From positions 64,001-128,000 of the forward strand of contig CAVVXH010000010.1 in the NCBI GenBank assembly GCA_963752155.1: a stretch of 64,000 bases of DNA, written 5' to 3'. The notes beneath the pieces are model-generated. The model worked only from the letters and a program-made list of their open reading frames with translations, was not told where the DNA came from and did not search any database. This stretch comes from an uncultured Parachlamydiaceae bacterium (GTDB lineage: Bacteria; Chlamydiota; Chlamydiia; Chlamydiales; Parachlamydiaceae). This document shows positions 10,961-22,847 of this stretch, piece after piece. Within the stretch, counting starts at the first letter, position 1. The number at the start of each line of letters is the position of its first letter. The translations under genes and the position numbers were made by a program.

Positions 10961-12150
10961 CTATCTGAAGTTTTTATTTTCAGCCATTTTACTTTTTACA
11001 AGAGATCTTAGAGCGTCTGCGCGATCTGTTTTTTCCCAAGTAAATTCAGATTCATGACGTCCAAAATGTCCTCCAAACGCAGTCTTTTGATATATTCGGA
11101 CGACAAAGATCTAACATTTTAAGAATACCGCCAGGAGAGAGATCAAAAAGTTCTAAGATAGCAGCTGACAAATATTGATCTGGAAACTGTCCAGTTCCAA
11201 AAGTGTCAATTTTAATTGAGATAGGCTGGGACATCCCAATCGCATAAGAAACTTGAATTTCACAACGGGAGGCTAATTTAGCGGCTACAACGTTTTTAGC
11301 AACATAACGTGCGGCGTAACTTGCAGAACGGTCCACTTTAGTTGGATCTTTTCCGGAGAAAGCTCCTCCGCCGTGACGTCCCATGCCTCCATATGTGTCT
11401 ACAATGATTTTTCTGCCCGTCAGTCCGCAATCAGCTGCCGGACCACCAATGGTAAAACGACCTGTTGGATTAATATAAAAAAGAGTTTTATCGTCGATGA
11501 GTTCTTGAGGAACAACATTTTTTACCAATCGAATCATATCTTCATGCAAGACTTTTTGGTCGATATCGTCTGAGTGTTGAGCAGATAAAACAACAGTATG
11601 CACTCGTAAAGGGCGGTGGTCTGCGCTGTACTCGATTGTGATTTGGGTTTTAGCATCTGGACCTAAATAGGGTAGAGTCTTTGCTCTTCTGACATTGTCC
11701 AATTCTCTGACGATTTGATGTGAAAGCATAATCGGTAAAGGCATGAGCTCCGGGGTATCTTCACATGCAAAACCAAACATCAGTCCCTGATCGCCTGCGC
11801 CCAATTCCTTTGAATCGCTAGCTCTTTCGTCAACTCCTAAGGAAATATCGGGGATTGTTTATTAATCGAGACATGATTCCGCATGAGCGGCAATCTAAAC
11901 CTAAGCGAGCATCCGTATAGCCTATATGTTCGAGCGTTTGACGCACAATAGCCTGGAAATTTAAATGAGCTTTGGTAGTAATCTCTCCGGCGACAATGAT
12001 GACCCCCGGACAAACAAGGACTTCGCAGGCAACTCTAGAAAGAGGGTCGTCAGTTAGAGCTGCATCTACAACTGCATCGGATATTTGGTCGGCAACTTTA
12101 TCCGGATGTCCAATGGCGACAGATTCGGAAGTAAATAAATATGTAGGCAT
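10961..12150 (-). CDS. metK: S-adenosylmethionine synthetase, interrupted by two frameshifts (~11845 and ~11097)
   Basis: [19 protein letters not shown] and [16 protein letters not shown] occur in successive frames. The shifted C-terminus reads [12 protein letters not shown]...FTWEKTD to TAG at 10961. Confidence 0.9.
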
Positions 12151-12259
12151 TATCAATTAACCATGGTGCAGATTTAATGGTATAAGCAAATATAGGCTGA
12201 TGTTAGTGGAACTTAATATATGTTGCAATAGGAAAAAAGTAAGGACAATAATTTCTGTA

Positions 12260-12415
12260 GACAGCAAGGACGGCAAGGACAGCAAGGACAACAAGGACAA
12301 CAAGGACAACAGAGATGACATGAAAGATAATTCAAAAATTTATGAGGACGGATCTATGTCGTTGCCTTGTTGTCCTTTTTGTCCTTTTCGTCCTTTTCGT
12401 CCTTGCCGTCCTTGC
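12260..12415. repeat. Palindromic element built of 9-nt tandem units (aaggacaac / gttgtcctt)
   Basis: Five to six aaggacNNc units on the left arm, reverse-complement units on the right arm, and an AT-rich spacer. Confidence 0.85.
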
Positions 12416-12418
12416 AAC

Positions 12419-13130
12419 TTATTTCTGTAGAGCTTGGTTTCTCTTATTTGCCATTTTCTCAGCAGCTATCTTAACAGCTAAGTTTTTATCAGAAATGGCA
12501 CACTTAGTGGTTCCTTTGCATTTTCCTTTTCCGGCACAGTCATTTGTTTCAGTTTTGCAAGCATTTTCTCCACTGCAGCTGTTTGTTCCACCGCAACGTT
12601 GGCTAGCTAATTTTCTAGCTAATTCTTGCCCTTCTGGAGATAGCTTTTTGTATTGTTTAATCCCTTCACTATTGAGTTGCAGAAGAAGGTCTCCTTCCGA
12701 CATCAAATGGTATCCAAGATTCCCGGCATTTGCATCGGTATTCGCTGTAATCTACTTTTGAAGGATCTTCAAGAGTTGATTTTTCGTCTAAGTCGCGCGC
12801 AGCTACTGCATGATTTAGTTCCACATTTGGAAGCCACTGAATTGCATTTGCTTCCACATTTGGAAGCCACTGAATTGATTTACTCCACATTTGGAAGCCA
12901 CTGAATTGCATTTACTCCCACATTTCGAAGCTATGAATTGCATTTCCCCAATTCGAAGCTACGGTTGCATTTGCTTCCGCAACTACACGCAAAAGCTTCG
13001 AACGAAAGTTTGTTAGATTTTCTAATGTAAGAATCGTTTTTTCGTTTCCAAAAGCAGCAGAAGGTGTGCTAAGAAGAAATCCATTAGTTAAACCTAGGAG
13101 GGCTAATTGTTTTATGTTTGTTTTTTTCAT
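12419..13130 (-). CDS. Secreted Cys-rich repeat protein with C-terminal BufA2-like six-Cys domain (frameshifted in this sequence)
   Basis: RBS plus signal-like MKKTNIKQLALLGLTNGFLL. 33-nt repeats encode SVASKCGSKCN. The C-terminus is CGGTNSCSGENACKTETNDCAGKGKCKGTTKC. Reconstructed from ORFs 12912-13130, 12669-12911 and 12419-12706. Confidence 0.75.
12819..12990 (-). repeat. Coding tandem repeat, ~33-nt unit (ttcagtggcttccaaatgtggaagcaaatgcaa), about 5 copies
   Basis: ccacatttggaagccactgaattg occurs three times exactly on the + strand, plus two degenerate copies. Confidence 0.85.
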
Positions 13131-13214
13131 AAAATATGTCCTTTTATAGATTTGTTTAAATTATCAAAAAGATGGTCATACTTTGGAATATAAAGTTCCA
13201 AATATAACCATTCG

Positions 13215-14253
13215 TTATATTATTGAGGTAATGTTATTATTGAGAGTGCTATTTCGTTTTTCAGCCATTTTTCTTGAGCTACTTTGACAGCTGTGTTTTT
13301 ATCTGTAAAAGGACCTGGAGACTTACCTTTGCAGCCATTTTTACCAGCGCAAGAGTTTTCAGCATTTTTGCAAGATCCTAGACCTTTACAATCATTTTTA
13401 CCTTTACAATCTTGATTAGCAAGCTTAATAGCCAAAGCTTTACCTTCAGGTGTTAGAGAATGGAATCTGGCTTTTCCTTGTGCGTTTAGTTGAGATGATA
13501 GATTTTTATCATCTATATAAACTTTTGCTGTTCGTGGAGTTGTTATAGTCTCATTTTCAGCCACAAGTTTGTTTTTGTTACCTTCAGTAGTGATTTAGGA
13601 TTTACATCATTGTAAGGGTTGTTTGCTGGAGCATCAGCATAATAAAATCTATCTTCGTTATTTTGAGTAGGTTTTGAAGCTCCACAACTTTGCGCAGTTG
13701 ACTGATTATTGAAACTGGAATCTCTGAATTCTTTAGAAGCTCCACAACTTTGTGCAGTTGCTGGATTATTGAATCCTTCGGATTTACCACCACATCCTTG
13801 AGATATTTGTTGACCTTTTCCAGATCCACGTTCTCCACCTTGAGCACAGGATTGGGTTGGTGATCCATCAGAACGCATTCCACCACCACTACAGCTTTGT
13901 GAGATGAATTGACCAGAGCCAGATCCACGTTGTCCTTCGGATTGATTTGGTGACCCATCAGAACGCATGTCAGATCTACCAGCACATCCTGTAGATATTT
14001 GTTGACCTCTTCCAGATCCGCGTTCTCCACCCTGAGCACAGGATTGAGTTGGTGATCCATCAGAACGCATATCAGATCTGCCAGCACATCCTGTAGATAT
14101 TTGTTGACCTTGTGGAATGCTTGCTCCGCATCCAGCAGCTAAGATAGAGCCATAAGAACCATTTAGAGATGTGGCGTTGGCCTCTGCTCCTAAGAATAGT
14201 AGACCTCCGGTTAATCCCATTAAAGCAAGCTTTTTAAATTTGTTGTCTTCCAT
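13215..14253 (-). CDS. Secreted Cys/Gly/Ser/Gln-rich repeat protein with C-terminal BufA2-like Cys domain (paralogue of 12419-13130, frameshifted)
   Basis: RBS gaggaaaatt-ATG and signal-like MEDNKFKKLALMGLTGGLLFLGAEANA. Nine (G/S)C(G/A/S) motifs, then QDCKGKNDCKGLGSCKNAENSCAGKNGCKG. Adding one A in the run near 13270 restores KMAEKRN, matching the paralogue's KMANKRN. Confidence 0.8.
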
Positions 14254-14445
14254 AATTTTCCTCAAACTTTTTTTTTTGATTCTGAGTTCTCGGCAGCCCA
14301 CTATATCCGCAGAGACTTCTTCTATTTTTGGGGTAACATACTTTCTATTTATGACTCAAGTTTTTTTTATGATGATATTTTGTTATCAGGCGTTTGCGTG
14401 CTTTGGACATGGTTACAAAAATTCTTTGTCCATTACAACGGCATG

Positions 14446-14528
14446 GGCGAAAATAGCCATTTTTTTCCGGTTTTCGCCAAGTATATGTCTATACCTGGCG
14501 AAAATTGCTATTTTTATCGTGTTTTCGC
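14446..14528. promoter_or_regulatory. Two tandem palindromes GGCGAAAA-N17-TTTTCGC(C)
   Basis: Arms at 14446-14453/14471-14478 and 14497-14504/14522-14528. Confidence 0.45.
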
Positions 14529-14568
14529 GGCTATCTGGAATTGATTTTTTGAGTGATTGGGTATACAA

Positions 14569-14876
14569 CTAGGGATGAGGTGTTATGGCAAGAATTGTTA
14601 TTACTTTTTTACCGGGCCCATAATGCCAAAAAATTCTGTAAGCCCCTGGTGTTTTATTTTGAGCGTAGGATTCGAAAACTTCTTCCCCGTTCGGGCCCTC
14701 CATCTCATCATATTTATGAGTATTTAATGAAGGATGCTTGAGGTTTGTACTCATGAGCTTTAAACTTTTGAGAACCGCTTTTTTAGCTATTTTTTTCCAT
14801 TGTCAGAGGCTAAAGCCAACAAGTCATCTTCAGCATTTTCAGTATATTCAAGTTCAAATTCGTTAGTTTGCATCAT
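14569..14876 (-). CDS. RelE-like toxin (one frameshift in an A-run near 14795)
   Basis: Reconstructed MMQTNEFELEYTENAEDDL...LMSTNLKHPSLNTHKY...AYRIFWHYGP...ITILAITPHP. Its start overlaps the antitoxin stop. Confidence 0.7.
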
Positions 14877-15114
14877 TAAATATATCATCCAATTCTTCAG
14901 AGCTTATTACTCGACATTTTCTTTCTTTTGATTGCTGAATTGATTCTTTCAGCCTTTTTCTAAATCTTTCTTGCTTAAGTTCTTGAAGCCCTTTCAAAAT
15001 CATTTGATGAACGAAATCTTTTATTGATAATCTAGCTTTAACGCATTCTGTTTTTAATATTAAATGCTCATTTTCAGGTATATCAAAGCTCAATCTAACC
15101 ATGCTTTCTTTCAT
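14863..15114 (-). CDS. Putative ribbon-helix-helix-like antitoxin
   Basis: 83 aa, VRLSFDIPENEHLILKTEC...SIKDFV, acidic tail, directly upstream of the toxin. Confidence 0.6.
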   Translation of the reverse strand: MKESMVRLSFDIPENEHLILKTECVKARLSIKDFVHQMILKGLQELKQERFRKRLKESIQQSKERKCRVISSEELDDIFNDAN

Positions 15115-15188
15115 ATAACCTCCTCTCTATATCTTAAGTATACAACATAACATGTTTACATGCAAATATGAAGTTTTAGCGCAGATTT

Positions 15189-17279
15189 TCACGAAGGTAA
15201 ACGGTCACCATGGTCAATGAAAAGAGAGATTAACTCTAAATTTTCATTGTTTTTGGCCAGTTCTAAAGGCTTCATTCCATTGAATTGGATGTTTACGTCA
15301 GCTCCTTTTTTTAAGAGATCTCTGACGAGCGGAATCTGATCTTTGTTGAGCATATGACCTTCGCAAAGGCGATAAAGAGGCGTTTTGCCTTCAGCATCAA
15401 GGGCATTGATGTAGGCTCGTGCCTCAATTAAGGGAATAATAACGTTCCACATCTTCTTTGTGATGGCTAGGTGCAAAAGAGGAATGCCACTTGGGTGAGG
15501 GATCGTTGCATCCGCTCCTTTCTTTAATAGGACTATAGTATTTAGTGAGCTTTCTTTATCAATGGCTAAGTGCAGGGGAGTCTTTTTCTTAGAGTCTTTT
15601 GCATCTAAGTCTACGCCAGCTTCTATGAGAAGAGCAATACACTCAGTTGAACCCCCTTCAACAGCGCTATGGAGTGGGTAAGATGGAGGATCGTTATGAG
15701 GGGAGGCATTTGCTTCCAATAAGAGCCTAAGAATTTTTGAGTCGTGAAAATTTTGACAGGCGATGGTTAGTGGTTTAAGGCCTCGTGAGTTGGCTTTAGC
15801 AACATCTGCCCCGTGGCCCAATAATAAGCGTACAAAACCTTCATGGCCAAGTTGTGTTGCTATGCAGAGCGGAGGAGATAACTCGCCTAAGGTTAAATTT
15901 GGATCTGCTTTGTGTTGCAATAAAAGTTTCGCTATTTCAATCTGAAGATTTTCAGTTGCATTGATAAGAGCTCTTCCACCTTGATTTTTTACAAGCAGGG
16001 GTTAATTCTTTCGTAATTTTTAAATTTAAGTTAGGGGTAAAAAAAGAATTTAATATCTTATATGAATCAGAATAGGTTTCTTTATGTGAAAATAGATCAA
16101 ATAGTTCTTCTGTTGAAAGGGTGAACAGATTAAGCAAGGTTCCTTCATGGTCGAATACAGTTTTACCTTTAAGCCTTTTTGAAGGAATTTCTTTTTTTAT
16201 TCTAAAGTTATGAATGCAAAATTGATCTATTTCTTTATATAGGTTTATAATATGTCTTTTTGCTTCTTCAAAAGTATAACCTAGTTTCTTATTATCATCT
16301 TTTTTTCCATAACCATATTTTATAGCTCGCCGAATCAAAGCTTGATCTTTGTATTTGTTTCCGTCCTTATTTAACTGTGCAATCTTTCCTAAATCAGCTA
16401 TTTCTAGCCAGTTTGTAATTTCGTTGATAATACTATCGTCTAAATTTATTGCTTTTTCGGAAACCTGAGAAAATATTTTAGGGGGCGAGATAAGGATATC
16501 AATACGTTGTTCGATATTGACAGACAAATCAGCGATCTCGGCTTTTCGCATGTTGATCTGTTCTGCGAAGTACCATTTTGTAAATAGATTTAATTTTGCA
16601 GCATTTACCATATGAATTATTTTTGGTTTCTATTGCTGTTCGACTGAAAGCTAAGTTGTTTTTACTCTAGAAATATTTAAATAATAAGGATTATTGTTCA
16701 ATAAATTGTTGAAAGTGTTTAAGAATTCCTTTATGTTTTTTAACGTGCTTTTCGCAGATTCGAGGGGAGGGGTGAATAGCCCTTTGGGGTGTTCTGGGAG
16801 ATTAAAAAATTGATATAAATGAAATGGGTAAAGTAGGGTTTCTGGATTCGAATATTTTTGAGGAATCTGATTTTTGAAAAAAAACTTTTGAATACGATTT
16901 AGCTTGGCATATTTAGTGTTATAGCCTTTAACCATCACTTTTGCTTTTTCTTGAAAAAGCTCATAAAGTTTACTTTCAGACATTTTGGCAAAGGGATCAT
17001 CTTGTATTTCGGCTTTGTATCTAAGGTTACCATTAATGACTAAGTCAATATTATTTAAATTCAAGAGAGCAGATCCGCCGCCCGTTCCTAGCTTTGCAGA
17101 GGTTTCTCGGATATAAAATGTATTGTCTTCTGGTCTAAGGATCACATTAAAAAAATTATTTGCCTGTCTCATTATGCTTCTATTTTAAGTATTGTAAATT
17201 AGTTTGGCATACTTTGACAGTAGACCGCCTATTTAGGGCTATTTTATCAGGAAATGTAATAGATGTAAAGCTTGGTCAT
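15189..17279 (-). CDS. Ankyrin-repeat protein with F-box-like motif, putative effector (fragmented by frameshifts)
   Basis: Ankyrin repeats (PPLCIAT, YPLHSAV, TPLHLAI, TPLYRLC) in 15189-15920. F-box-like LDDSIINEITNWLEIADLGKIAQLNK in 15952-16611. RBS-ATG near 17279. Joining the pieces into one gene is inferred. Confidence 0.6.
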
Positions 17280-17302
17280 TTTAACTCCTAAATAATGAAA
17301 TC

Positions 17303-17427
17303 GACTAAGGGACGAAAGGACAACAAGGACAACAAGGACGACAAGCAAGGACATATAAAATAAACGGGAAATGGTACTATCTTACATTTTTGTTGCTTGT
17401 CCTTGCTTGTCGTCCTTGTTGTCCTTT
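17303..17427. repeat. Second copy of the aaggacaac-unit palindromic element
   Basis: aaggacaacaaggacaacaaggacgacaagcaaggac ... gtccttgcttgtcgtccttgttgtcctt. Confidence 0.85.
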
Positions 17428-17509
17428 TTTCCTATACTTTATACCCTAAAAATATAATACATATAGTATAATGAAATTAAAGGTTCATTCAAGTTATAAG
17501 GTTTAAACT

Positions 17510-20500
17510 ATGCCGTTTATAAAGGATTATGAGAACTTAATACTAATACAAGAAGGACGTCGAAATGTCATTTATACCGCATTTCGTAAAAAGATCGGAA
17601 GTTCCCGTAGTTCTTAAAGTCTTACGAATGTCGAATCCAACATTAGAGGATATAGCCCTGATTTATAATGAATTCGAGGTTAGTAAAGATCTTGTATTAT
17701 CAAATATAATTAAAACATATGGTTTGAGTAGAAGAGCCAGAATGTTATGCTCTAGTCCAAGAAAATATTCAGGGAACCTTTCATTAGCAAACTATTTAAA
17801 TCAATAGACCAATCAAAAATTTAACAGATTTCTACAAAATCGCTTTACAGATGATCGATGCAGTGATTGGAATCCATCGCAATAATATCATTCACAAAGA
17901 TATAAAGCCTAGTAATTTTATCATCGATGCCTACGACGATGATCGTTAAGCTTACAGATTTTAATTTTGCGGTGAAACTTTCTCATGAAATTCAAGAAGC
18001 TTTACCTCCTGAAAATTAATCGGAACCCTTGCTTATATGGCCCCAGAGCAAACAGGTCGCATGAACATGAACGTGGATTATCGCAGCGATTTCTATGCTC
18101 TTGGTGTGACATTCTATGAAATGCTTAGCCGGAGAACTTCCTTTTTATTCAACGGATCCGTTTGAATTAGTCCATTCCCATATTGCAGTATCAGCCCCTG
18201 ATGCTTCGGAACTCAATGTTGATATTCCCAAATCTTTAGCTAAATTGATACAAAAGCTCATGGCAAAAGACCCCTCCGAACGTTATCAAAGTGCTATTGG
18301 GATCAAGCAGGATCTTGAGGAATGCGCTAAAGGAGATGATAAAGTTATTTGCGTTAGGGCAAATGGATGTCCACGACACTTTAAATATCTCTCAAAAGAT
18401 GTATGGAAGGCAAGATGAAATTAAATTTCTTTTAACCGCCTATGATCGAGTCAGCCAGGGATCCACCGAAGCATTGATGGTCCATGGATATTCTGGCATT
18501 GGAAAAACGATGTTGATTAATGAAGTGCATAAACCCATGGTCAAGCATAAAGGGTATTTCATAAGCGGAAAATGTAGTCAAATGCAACATAACATTCCCT
18601 ATACAGCGATGACCCAAGCATTTAATCAATTGGTTCGGCTTATTTTGTCTGAACCGGAAGAACAGTTTGAAAAATTTAAAGAAGCAATCATCGATGCCCT
18701 TGGGGGCGTTGCACAAGTATTGATCGATTTAGTTCCCCAACTTGAACTTATCATAGGCCCTCAACCTCCTTTAGAAAAATTGCCGGCTCAAGAAACACAA
18801 AATCGGATGATGGTTTTTTTTAAACGCTTTATGGAGGTCGTAGCAACTAAAGAACATCCCTTAGTGATGTTCATCGATGATTTGCAATGGATTGACAATA
18901 GTTCTTTAAAACTCTTGGAATATATTATTACCGATGAGGACTTAAGTTACGTGTTGCTTATCGGAGCATATCGCGATAATGAAGTTGAAGGGCATCATCC
19001 TTTGCAACTTTTTTTAAAGGAAATGTCAGAACAAGAAAAAACCATTCATTCACTAAGATTAGGACCTTTGAAAGAAGCTGATTTTGAAGCTCTATTTAAA
19101 GATAGTTTTAATCGTGATGAAGAGTCCCTAAAACCATTGGTCGATCTCATCTACAAACTTACTGGAGGGAATTCTTTTTTCTGTAAGCAGGTAATTAACA
19201 CGTTATATAAAGAAGGTTTTTTATTTTTTGATTATGAAAAGAGTCGATGGGATTGGAATTTGGATGGGATTAAAACGTTAAAAATTTCGGATAATGTGGT
19301 TGATCTGATGTTAGGAAAATTAGGTGAATTACCCATTGAAACTCAGTCTTTATTAAAATATGGAGCTTGTTTAGGCAATTCATTCACTGTTGAAATGTTG
19401 ATGCTAGTGAGCAATCAATCGGCAAATGAAATTGCCAAAAATCTTTCTCCAGCATTCCAAAATGAATTGATCTTATTGCAAAAGCAAGGGATTAAATTTA
19501 CAAATGCAATTAGCTCAGATAAATTGGCTCATCAACTTTCAAGAAATACCGTTTATCAATTCATCCATGATCGAATTCAGCAGGCAGTAGATAAGAGTAT
19601 TCCATTAGATGAAAAACAGAAAATTCATCTAAGCATTGCTCGTTTACTTATTGAAAATGAACCAGAAGCTTCTGCCAAAGAATTGTTATTTGAAGTTGCA
19701 GATCATTTTAATGAAGCCCATGACTTATTAAGTGAAAAAGAGAAGTTCGATGTTGTCAATTTAAATTATAAAGCAGGTCTCAAAGCATTAGGTGCAAATG
19801 CTTACAGTTCGATGTCTAATTATCTTCGAGCTGCGCTCTCCCTGATTGATGCAAAGTGGTGGGATACACATTATGAGTTGATGTTTGGGTTGAATCGCAG
19901 CTATGCGCAAAGTCTTTATCTCACTGGAGAGGTTGGTAAAAGTGCTGAAATAACAGAAAATCTTTTACAGCTTGCTCAAAGCGCATTTGATAAAGCAGGC
20001 ATTTATCGTATTCAATGTTTACAACATCAAATGAGTGCTAATCTCCCTTTGGCAGTTGATGCTGGGTTGAAAGCCCTAGAACTTCTGGGTGTTAAGATCT
20101 CGGCTCAACCTTCGAAGCTGAACGTTTGGATGAAATTTATTCAAGTGAAGGGAGCTTTCTGGAAATATCATCTCGATACACTGGATAAAGAATTGAAGGT
20201 GATGACGGATAAGAATTGGCTCGCAGTTTTTCAGATTTTGAACGAGATATTTTATTCTGCTTATTCAGTGTCCGGAAATTTGTATACCTATTTGCTGTTG
20301 GTTGCGATGCACTTAATGCTGAAACATGGCAAACCTCCAAGCGCAGGGTTATGGGTCATAGGGTATGCCTTAGCGACATTGAATTTAACAAAAAATGTGA
20401 ACGATTGTTTTGCTTTGTGGGCTTGTGCAGAACGATTTATGGAGCAAGATAAGGATAAATATTCTTCTCCATATGGTTGTTGGGTGCGGGGATTTTTTTT

Positions 20501-22847
20501 AAATCATCTTCGTTATCCTTTCAAAGATGCGAGTGTCTATTGTCAACAAGGTATCCAAGACGCTTTGGAGTCAGGTAATTTACAGGCAGCCATATTGAAT
20601 ATGAGTGCTTTAGCAGGAGTGATTAGAAGTGAATCGAAGTCTTTGAAAAATTTGAGGGAAAGCCAGGGTGATACGTTGAATTATGCCCGTAAGATACATA
20701 TGAAAGAAGCTGTCGATACGATGGGATTTTTGAGCTGTTTAGCCGATGTTGAGTTAGGGAGAATTCCTGCTGATAAATCCCAACTCGATTTGTATCGCAG
20801 TCTTATTTTTGGAAAAGGTCGATTTATGGAGGCGATTAGATCCATTTTAATGGGACGCTATTTTTATTTTTTGGAGTTATATGAGGCGGCATGTGCGTGT
20901 CATTTTCAATGGTATTCGGAAGAAAAAAGAATGCGTTACAATGTAAATACTCTTTCTCAAAAAACATTGGATGCCTTATCGATTGCAAGACGCATTCCTG
21001 AGTTGTCGTTCACTCAAAGGCTTCGTTATCATCATCAATTCCGCAAAATTTATAAAGACTTAAAATGGGCAGCCAAAGAGTGTCCTCAGAACTATGAACA
21101 TCAATATGCAATACTTAGAGGTGTTCGTGAATCTCTTAAAGGTCGATACCAAAAAGCTATTCAGGAGTTTGAAAAAGCTGCTGATGGGGCTAAAAGAAAC
21201 CGAGGATTTCTTTGGGTGGCGATAGCTAATGAGTTGGCCGGAGACTTACTCGTAAAACAAGGGCATCTTCGCTATGCTGTCGATTATATCCGTGAAGCTT
21301 GTTATTATTATGAGCATTATGGGATGAAGTTGAAAGTCGACGTGCTCGAAAAACGTTATCCCTACTGTTTTGCAAATGTAGATATGAGCTTTAATCATGG
21401 TCAAGGAGCTGAATTAGATAGAATTAGCATGATGACAATGACCACATCGTCAGCAGATCTCGATATCACATCTGTCATAAAAGCCAGCCAATCCATTTCT
21501 GAAGAGCTCGTGCCGGATAAATTGTTTGAAAAAGTATTGCATATCATGATCGAAAATGCGGGAGCTCAAAGAGCTGTGTTTATAGAGAAAGAAAAAAAAC
21601 AATGGCTAGTCAACGCTTCATTTGTTCATCAAAAGGACTCTGATCGGTTTCAAGTTCATAATATTCCATTGAAGGATTACAAAGAGGTTCCACATTCCAT
21701 ACTGAACGTTTCCTTAAGACTAAGAGAACCTATGATTGTCAATAATGCTAAAGAAGATCCACAATATGCAGATGATCTTTATATCAGAAGTGTTGCTCCT
21801 AAATCGATTCTGTGCCTTCCCATTATTTACAAAGAAAAACGAGTGGGTTTGATTTATTTTGAAAATAATCTTACTGGAGGAGCGTTTACTGAAAAGAGAA
21901 TTCATTTGCTTCGTACGTTGTCGACACAGATTGTGATTTCATTAGAAAACGCTCGCCATTTTGAGTACGTACAGTTCATGTATCGTGCGATAGATCGGTT
22001 TGTTCCGAGACGATTTTTGCAGTTACTGCAAAGAGAAAATGTGGAAGATGTGAAATTAGGAGATAGTGTTAAACGAAAAATTAGTGCCTTATTTGCTGAT
22101 ATTCGTGGTTTCACGACTTTAGCGGAAACCCTTACGCCAGAGCGTACAGCATTATTTTTGAATACTTATATGCGTTATATGGCACCAATTATTCGAAAAA
22201 ACAAAGGATTCGTCAATCAATTTTTGGGCGATGGAATCATGGCGCTATTTCCTGAATCACCTTCAGATGCAGTTGATGCAGCTGTTGCTATGAATGAAAT
22301 GCTAGCAAGCTTTAACAAAAAAATCGAAGCCGAAGGATTTGCACCCATTAGTGTTGGAATTGGGATCAACACGGGCGATGCGATGATATGCACCCTTGGA
22401 GAAGAAGAGCGTTTAGATGCAAGTGTTGTGAGTGATGCTATCAACACTGCCTCTCGCGTTGAAGGATTAAACAAGTACTATAGAACTCGGTTGCTCATTA
22501 GTGATGCTGTGTATGATCAACTGACAAATAAAAGTAAATACTTGATCAGATTAGTTGATCGAGTTGTATTAAAAGGTAAGAATAAGGCAACAGCTATTTA
22601 TGAGGTATCGCGACTTCCCTCACCTGAGAATTTTCAAGATGAATTGAGTTATCTAGAGTTATTTACGAATGCATTTGCTTCGTATGAAAAGGGGGATTTT
22701 AAAAAGGCGGAAGAAGCTTTTAACCTTTGCTATAAGCAAAAGCCTGAAGATTACTTAGCAAGAATGTTTCGCGATCGATGCAGCGAGTTTCTGAAAACAG
22801 GTGTTCCGGCTGACTGGAATGGAGTGAATATTCTTTTGGAAAAATGA
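17510..22847 (+). CDS. Multidomain Ser/Thr kinase - AAA ATPase - helical repeat - GAF - class III adenylate/guanylate cyclase (kinase part frameshifted)
   Basis: [20 protein letters not shown] and [15 protein letters not shown] occur across shifted frames. Then Walker [26 protein letters not shown]...LIYFEN, and cyclase [39 protein letters not shown]. Confidence 0.88.

Follow-up and report, generated by a model that had tools for sequence, protein, structure and literature searches.

Two predicted bufferin-type precursor genes in a Parachlamydiaceae genome, encoded apart from their probable MNIO/DUF2063 modification enzymes

We report that two tandem genes, referred to as A and B, in the 64,000-nucleotide stretch of chlamydial DNA analysed here (the window) encode predicted precursors that would be modified in trans by the only MNIO/DUF2063 enzyme pair of the same genome, located on another contig (C2). 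Judged from sequence and gene order we give this reading a probability of roughly 0.8, since the C2 pair has no precursor beside it and since the cysteine (Cys) core present in both genes is mostly found upstream of an MNIO gene across the phylum; a caveat is that the genome is 80% complete and another substrate could be missing. The products are likely exported copper-binding peptides of the bufferin/captophorin kind. New is the modular precursor design, in which the core is placed in a predicted four-helix unit behind a variable tract; the chemistry and the class are known. An earlier note on this DNA had suggested a BufA2-like core belonging to an MNIO/DUF2063 system with the enzyme encoded elsewhere, which agrees with the core matches, the C2 pair and the co-occurrence described below, while the new RiPP system that it put forward turned out to be a variant form of the bufferin/captophorin class in chlamydiae.

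Translation in all six frames and tblastn searches with intact homologues resolve the locus into two co-oriented genes on the minus strand, as had been claimed, and this model is also backed by 84 family proteins and by a genome of the same genus (G133). The open reading frame track is indeed broken here, albeit into six pieces and not about five. The genes and their parts are as follows:

13215..14253, minus strand, gene A: signal-like start, nine-Cys low-complexity tract and predicted four-helix unit with a five-Cys BufA2-like core (end approximate)
14173..14253, minus strand, gene A predicted Sec-type signal: basic start, hydrophobic stretch of 13 aa
13684..14130, minus strand, gene A tract: Gly/Ser/Gln-rich repeat with nine (G/S)-C-(G/A/S) motifs
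13268..13519, minus strand, gene A C-terminal domain: 37 bits with the BufA2 model NF050166 (cutoff 60)
13331-13408, minus strand, gene A five-Cys core, inside the C-terminal domain
12419..13130, minus strand, gene B: signal-like start, 11-residue Cys repeat and predicted four-helix unit with a six-Cys core
12813..12972, minus strand, gene B 33-bp tandem repeat: each unit has two Cys, one of them in a KCG motif
12422..12706, minus strand, gene B C-terminal domain: 28 bits with NF050166
about 12500-12595, minus strand, gene B six-Cys core, inside the C-terminal domain

Both genes start with the motif K(K/Q)LAL(M/L)GLT, in keeping with the related signal-like starts noticed earlier; the mean Kyte-Doolittle value over the 13-aa hydrophobic stretch, which follows a basic start, is 2.1 in gene A and 1.7 in gene B, and the only clear matches in the genome to an N-terminal profile common to A and B are these two genes. 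The gene A tract has exactly nine Cys, every one in a motif of the (G/S)-C-(G/A/S) type that the earlier note had counted, and the Cys repeat tract attributed to gene B was recovered as a 33-bp tandem repeat in 4.1-5.1 copies. The common C-terminal domain (~90 aa) is 47% identical between the two genes over 83 aa (E 6e-21), and the Cx5Cx5Cx6Cx5C core assigned to it is present in both. Among 6.26 million residues of six-frame translation of the genome this pattern is seen 15 times; 13 of these come from a non-coding 9-bp repeat read as poly-CCP, and the other two are genes A and B. A sixth Cys follows in gene B, five residues past the fifth, and is missing from gene A. The gene B domain is 80% and 76% identical to its closest intact homologues, P0081 and P0082, respectively. 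A scan for promoters and terminators gave hits at chance level.

The window has no MNIO gene and the only PF05114 match of the genome is on contig C2, so the probable modifier is encoded outside the 64 kb, as the first reading had it. This single MNIO (C2:227170-227955) scores 325.4 bits against the BufB model NF050167 (cutoff 310) and is followed by a DUF2063 gene (PF09836, 55.2 against 27.2); rpsD precedes it, no precursor lies beside it, and a precursor directly upstream of the MNIO gene is thus not seen in this genome, where the two are on different contigs. The BufA2 likeness of the core holds to the extent that NF050166 matches both domains (E 2.8e-9 and 1.6e-6), but at 37 and 28 bits both are below the cutoff of 60. 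Within the genome (80% complete) this model matches genes A and B and no others, no DUF2282 precursor was found, and the HvfA-type precursor model gave no match to A and B; three DoxX genes were found, none of them on the precursor contig or the MNIO contig. Of 47 chlamydial MNIOs, 43 have an Asp and 4 a Glu immediately after the catalytic Asp, a position occupied by Phe in 3BWW. The corresponding selectivity site, FonB-Phe250, was placed via the 3BWW alignment and the description in PMC13097082, and not by aligning FonB itself; Asp at this site, which section 14 of PMC13097082 gives as a mark of the MNIOs of Cys-Lys captophorins, is accordingly present in 43 of the 47.

A survey of 401 genomes of the phylum, in which matches covering the Cys core were kept and those to signal, tract or helices only were dropped, links the core to the enzyme. 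The family profile matches 101 of these genomes and MNIO is present in 139; in family f4 (30 genomes) both counts are zero. Among the matches listed, 77 of the 401 genomes have the core, an MNIO is present in 76 of these (none was found in the remaining one), the core lies at most 700 bp upstream of a co-oriented MNIO gene in 66 (median gap 94 bp), and the MNIO gene is farther off or on a different contig in ten; these counts include kin and are not independent. The order precursor-MNIO-DUF2063 is found in one cluster in most relatives. Four of the ten exceptions are real splits where other genes adjoin the MNIO (G000, G133, G319 and G377); as to the other six, one is adjacent via a broken copy (G188) and five are fragmented assemblies or unread. 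In the same-genus genome G133 two intact precursors lie beside metK and the MNIO gene follows rpsD, which means that the genus shares this split. The converse dependence does not hold, as 63 of the 139 MNIO genomes lack the core (among the matches listed). Moreover, some genomes that hold an operonic copy have, at a distance from the MNIO operon, further short five-Cys copies in which the tract is small or absent (loci L016, L017, L019, L021, L024 and L014), and because these stand apart from the operon, candidates for modification in trans recur in the phylum.

The search for longer proteins gave 102 matches, 84 of them with the whole domain (P0001-P0083 and P0088), and a domain profile search gave 112 clusters at E<=1e-30 among 1.84 billion representatives; one family match is named Parachlamydiaceae by its source. 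The core has five Cys in 56, six in 24 and a deviating number in 4 of the 84 family proteins, and six in 69, five in 43 and a deviating number in one of 113 further proteins found with the profile. The residue next after a core Cys is Lys in 62% and Ala in 28% of cases (424 Cys from 80 family proteins). In 64 proteins with a recognised signal motif the N-terminal tract comprises 0-13 Cys and is missing in four; its Cys (363 in total) stand mostly in a (G/S)-C-(G/N/S/A) context, preceded by Lys in 7% and followed by Lys in 2%. Given this context the tracts are not HvfA-type EGKCG repeats, and of the earlier comparison with HvfA there remains the KCG of the gene B unit. In a domain tree (92 columns, bootstrap not settled) gene B belongs to a supported group of 24 six-Cys domains, and gene A, with a partial row, was not placed. 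Pfam gave DUF7640 for 10 of 48 domain sequences (best E 9.5e-5), and the best ESM Atlas score was 0.81, the third match being a mostly Chlamydiota cluster (0.77), which is a lead only. Two proteins, P0002 and that encoded at G002:C29:2119-2718, have two tandem domains, each a helical unit plus core, and a Cys after the hydrophobic start, which suggests that they may be lipoproteins; such a Cys is also seen in single-domain forms of family f3.

With the bufferin 2 system BufA2-BufB2-BufC2 of Caulobacter vibrioides (class Buf_6/12Cys), as described in PMC11626156 and PMC13097082, the chlamydial genes share the signal-like start and the Cys-Lys context, a BufB-type MNIO above cutoff with Asp after the catalytic Asp, a DUF2063 partner and, in 66 of 77 relatives among the matches listed, the gene order; the spacing of the first five core Cys is that of BufA2 proteins above cutoff. 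They differ in having the core within a predicted four-helix unit, which the capless BufA2 copies of G360 lack, in the N-terminal tract of 0-13 Cys, in the five-Cys forms (56/84 and 43/113 family proteins), and in that genes A and B score under the NF050166 cutoff and are separated from the enzyme genes. The BufA2 model matches 76 of 400 genomes of the phylum, one of them above cutoff (the G360 capless copies), and the two-domain relative P0002 exceeds the cutoff by its summed score. Where bufferin 2 has six conserved Cys gene A has five; in gene B the spacing from the fifth to the sixth Cys is five residues compared to eleven in the G360 copies, and this sixth Cys may for this reason not correspond to CysVI. 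Being under the cutoff, and with gene A deviating from the six-Cys rule, the two genes are regarded as a variant and not as members of BufA2. Oxazolin (HvfA-HvfB-HvfC) and fontiphorin (FonABC), whose precursors form the class Buf_EGKCG of Lys-Cys captophorins (as given in PMC11252979 and PMC13097082), likewise have an exported-type precursor in which Cys motifs, many of which are Cys-Gly, are repeated a varying number of times, and the KCG in the gene B repeat is a further likeness. The chlamydial family differs from these in having no match to the HvfA-type model and Lys before only 7% of the tract Cys; in this genome its MNIO reaches 243.6 bits where the HvfB cutoff is 360, with one Arg instead of two and Asp instead of Phe at the selectivity sites.

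The genes upstream of MNIO are of three builds: a signal followed by a Cys tract alone; a signal, 1-5 Cys and a core-less helical unit; and, as in the window, a signal, an optional tract and a helical unit with the core. In ten genes the core is cleanly absent and a short loop joins the flanking helices. AlphaFold2 predicts four helices for the core-less unit (pLDDT 88, pTM 0.72), and these correspond to the helices at residues 4-10, 13-21, 24-35 and 74-94 in the model of the gene B domain, which surround a Cys loop of low confidence (pLDDT about 50), the model being read as secondary structure and confidence. As the core-less unit keeps the same four helices, we predict that the core has been inserted into a small, self-standing four-helix unit, in the loop that connects helices 3 and 4. 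Foldseek gave no match for this unit at E<=0.001, and the best fold-search matches (Z 4.3, rmsd 3.2 over 64 aligned for the gene B domain; Z 4.8, rmsd 2.7 over 54 aligned for the core-less unit) show it as neither a known nor a new fold. A helical unit with a partly degenerate three-Cys core, intermediate between full and empty, is present upstream of an MNIO gene at L047:2422-2688.

Together these data are consistent with a mechanism in which the MNIO and DUF2063 proteins from C2 would act in trans on the A and B products and convert Cys to 5-thiooxazoles by oxidation. In bufferin 2 of C. vibrioides a disulfide likely links CysI to CysVI, and it is the central Cys that carry the modification (according to PMC11626156). 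Here the four-helix unit would hold the ends of the loop together instead, such that the disulfide might be dispensable in five-Cys copies, e.g. gene A, which would explain these forms; the Cys of the N-terminal tract would provide additional modification sites, and the Sec-exported products would buffer copper, plausibly against a phagocytic host. As reported in PMC11626156, bufferins protect Caulobacter against amoebae. The helical unit was also considered as a recognition domain, but it is absent from the tract-only genes, and HvfB and FonB modify short fragments (PMC11252979 and PMC13097082); because of the tract-only genes we rate such a role lower than tract modification.

That the tract Cys are modified has in our judgement slightly better than even odds. 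An MNIO without a core match is kept in 13 of 46 family genomes, including the near-complete G055, G235 and G271. Nine of these 13 genomes were inspected, and in each the MNIO is preceded by a gene with only 1-2 Cys, mostly placed in motifs of the tract type; six of these nine genes have an empty helical unit; the MNIOs of the nine genomes are 65-77% identical to that of the present genome, and no column of the MNIO alignment separates them from the others. Since a conserved MNIO has only such candidates nearby in these genomes, the tract motifs are suggested to be substrates, and to this extent they point towards the hybrid multi-core precursors envisaged in the earlier note; the lack of Lys in the tract motifs and the unmodified N-terminal Cys pair of HvfA point the other way. 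Alternatively, only the Cys-Lys core is modified and the tracts are unmodified linkers or form disulfides, in which case the genes would be ordinary bufferin-2 variants with decorations. We consider this a real possibility, if clearly short of an even chance: the MNIO bears the Cys-Lys signature residue, Lys follows only 2% of the 363 tract Cys, the tract varies from 0 to 13 Cys and is absent from 4 of 64 scored proteins, and the two N-terminal Cys of HvfA form a disulfide and are unmodified (PMC11252979). It does not readily account for the conserved MNIOs of the core-less genomes, and the FonB-F250D variant still modified EGKCG substrates (reported in PMC13097082), so Asp at the site does not exclude Cys-Gly motifs. 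The more far-reaching version of tract modification, that one conserved MNIO/DUF2063 pair docks on the four-helix unit as a folded recognition domain and oxidises both the core and the Cys-Gly-type tracts of hypervariable exported precursors, we hold to be rather doubtful; if true, environmental chlamydiae would have a diversity-generating metallophore system in which a single chain and a single enzyme combine the substrate styles of bufferin 2 and oxazolin, and which would work in trans in the genus of this chlamydia.

The frameshifts in A and B are probably assembly errors, the genes being intact in life. Gene A changes frame near 13590 and near 13275 (six-frame translation and tblastn) and gene B several times from about 13050 to 12730, in and around its repeat, where five measured spacings are 28, 33, 31, 33 and 31 bp; spacings of 28 and 31 bp beside a 33-bp unit indicate that bases are missing. 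The neighbouring metK is frameshifted too, the toxin ORF of a toxin-antitoxin pair at 14.6-14.9 kb is apparently split as well, and a kinase domain at 17.5-18.3 kb is broken, with the remainder of its gene (1518 aa) in a single unbroken frame. The frameshift-rich patch (11050-18300, ~7 kb) thus includes metK, both precursors, the toxin ORF, the kinase domain and possibly the ORFs at 15189-17172. Real pseudogenes, decaying since the operon was split, would also fit several observations: the breaks in the gene B repeat are deletions, also outside homopolymers, and true gene decay is deletion-biased as well; the precursors are separated from their enzyme; and frame changes are uncommon elsewhere, with 2 of 23 other conserved genes surveyed affected (metK and the precursor locus excluded). 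Decay is nevertheless unlikely. The patch breaks unrelated genes, among them metK and the kinase, and stops within a single gene, which an unpolished assembly explains better; relatives with unbroken genes are common, no in-frame stop was seen within the matched domains, every core Cys is retained, G133 has the same split with intact genes, and the MNIO pair of this genome is unbroken. Two 151-bp pieces of one DNA run (0.05 share) fall in genes A and B; they show 0 and 1 differences, and neither spans a frameshift. Other findings within 11050-18300 are to be read with a likely unpolished assembly in mind.

Cysteine-crosslinked envelopes are typical of the Chlamydiota phylum, and the A and B proteins resemble OmcA/OmcB in being Cys-rich, predicted to be exported by their signal-like starts, and chlamydial, but that they are unmodified, disulfide-crosslinked envelope proteins of this kind, the alternative that the earlier note offered, is highly improbable, as six pieces of A and B gave no Chlam_OMP family in Pfam at E<=1 and no sequence match to OmcA/OmcB, PF03504 gives only a separate, weak OmcB-like match on contig C11 (E 2.4e-4, under cutoff), and the distribution and gene order of the family follow MNIO and not the phylum (101/401 genomes match at all; family f4 0/30 for both).

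With A and B read as precursors modified in trans, the family bears on published surveys. Our literature searches, with subscription papers mostly outside their coverage, found no paper describing the family. Chlamydiae are not mentioned in the main text of PMC12452194, as far as it was available; that stand-alone precursors are possibly modified from another locus is already noted there, and its supplement has at least five Parachlamydiales with MNIO and DUF2063 and no precursor of a known class, for which the present family would supply the likely missing substrates. The supplement of PMC13097082 lists chlamydial MNIO pairs, and three of six partner accessions looked up in it yielded four ORFs that are family members by their motifs, the class columns all being blank. 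Family members are hence tabulated in print and undescribed within the searched literature. The natural series (tract only; tract and empty helical unit; helical unit holding a five- or six-Cys core; all combined) makes a test set for the choice of Cys, and our data suggest that a copper-defence module is common in environmental chlamydiae.

Other elements are present near the two genes. A hairpin-like element built of mirrored 9-bp repeat arrays lies between gene B and metK, at 12260-12413; its arms have 75 matches genome-wide, and one copy (G000:C2:226920-227042) immediately precedes the MNIO gene. In G133 the region upstream of the MNIO gene showed no such arms, and the element is therefore probably not the cause of the split. 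Directly upstream of gene A, at 14569-15114 on the minus strand, lies a ParD-like antitoxin (E 4.5e-5) followed by the split Gp49/RelE-like toxin ORF (E 0.22, weak). Finally, the gene with the broken kinase domain (17500-22847, plus strand) is a large kinase, AAA ATPase, GAF and adenylate/guanylate cyclase gene.
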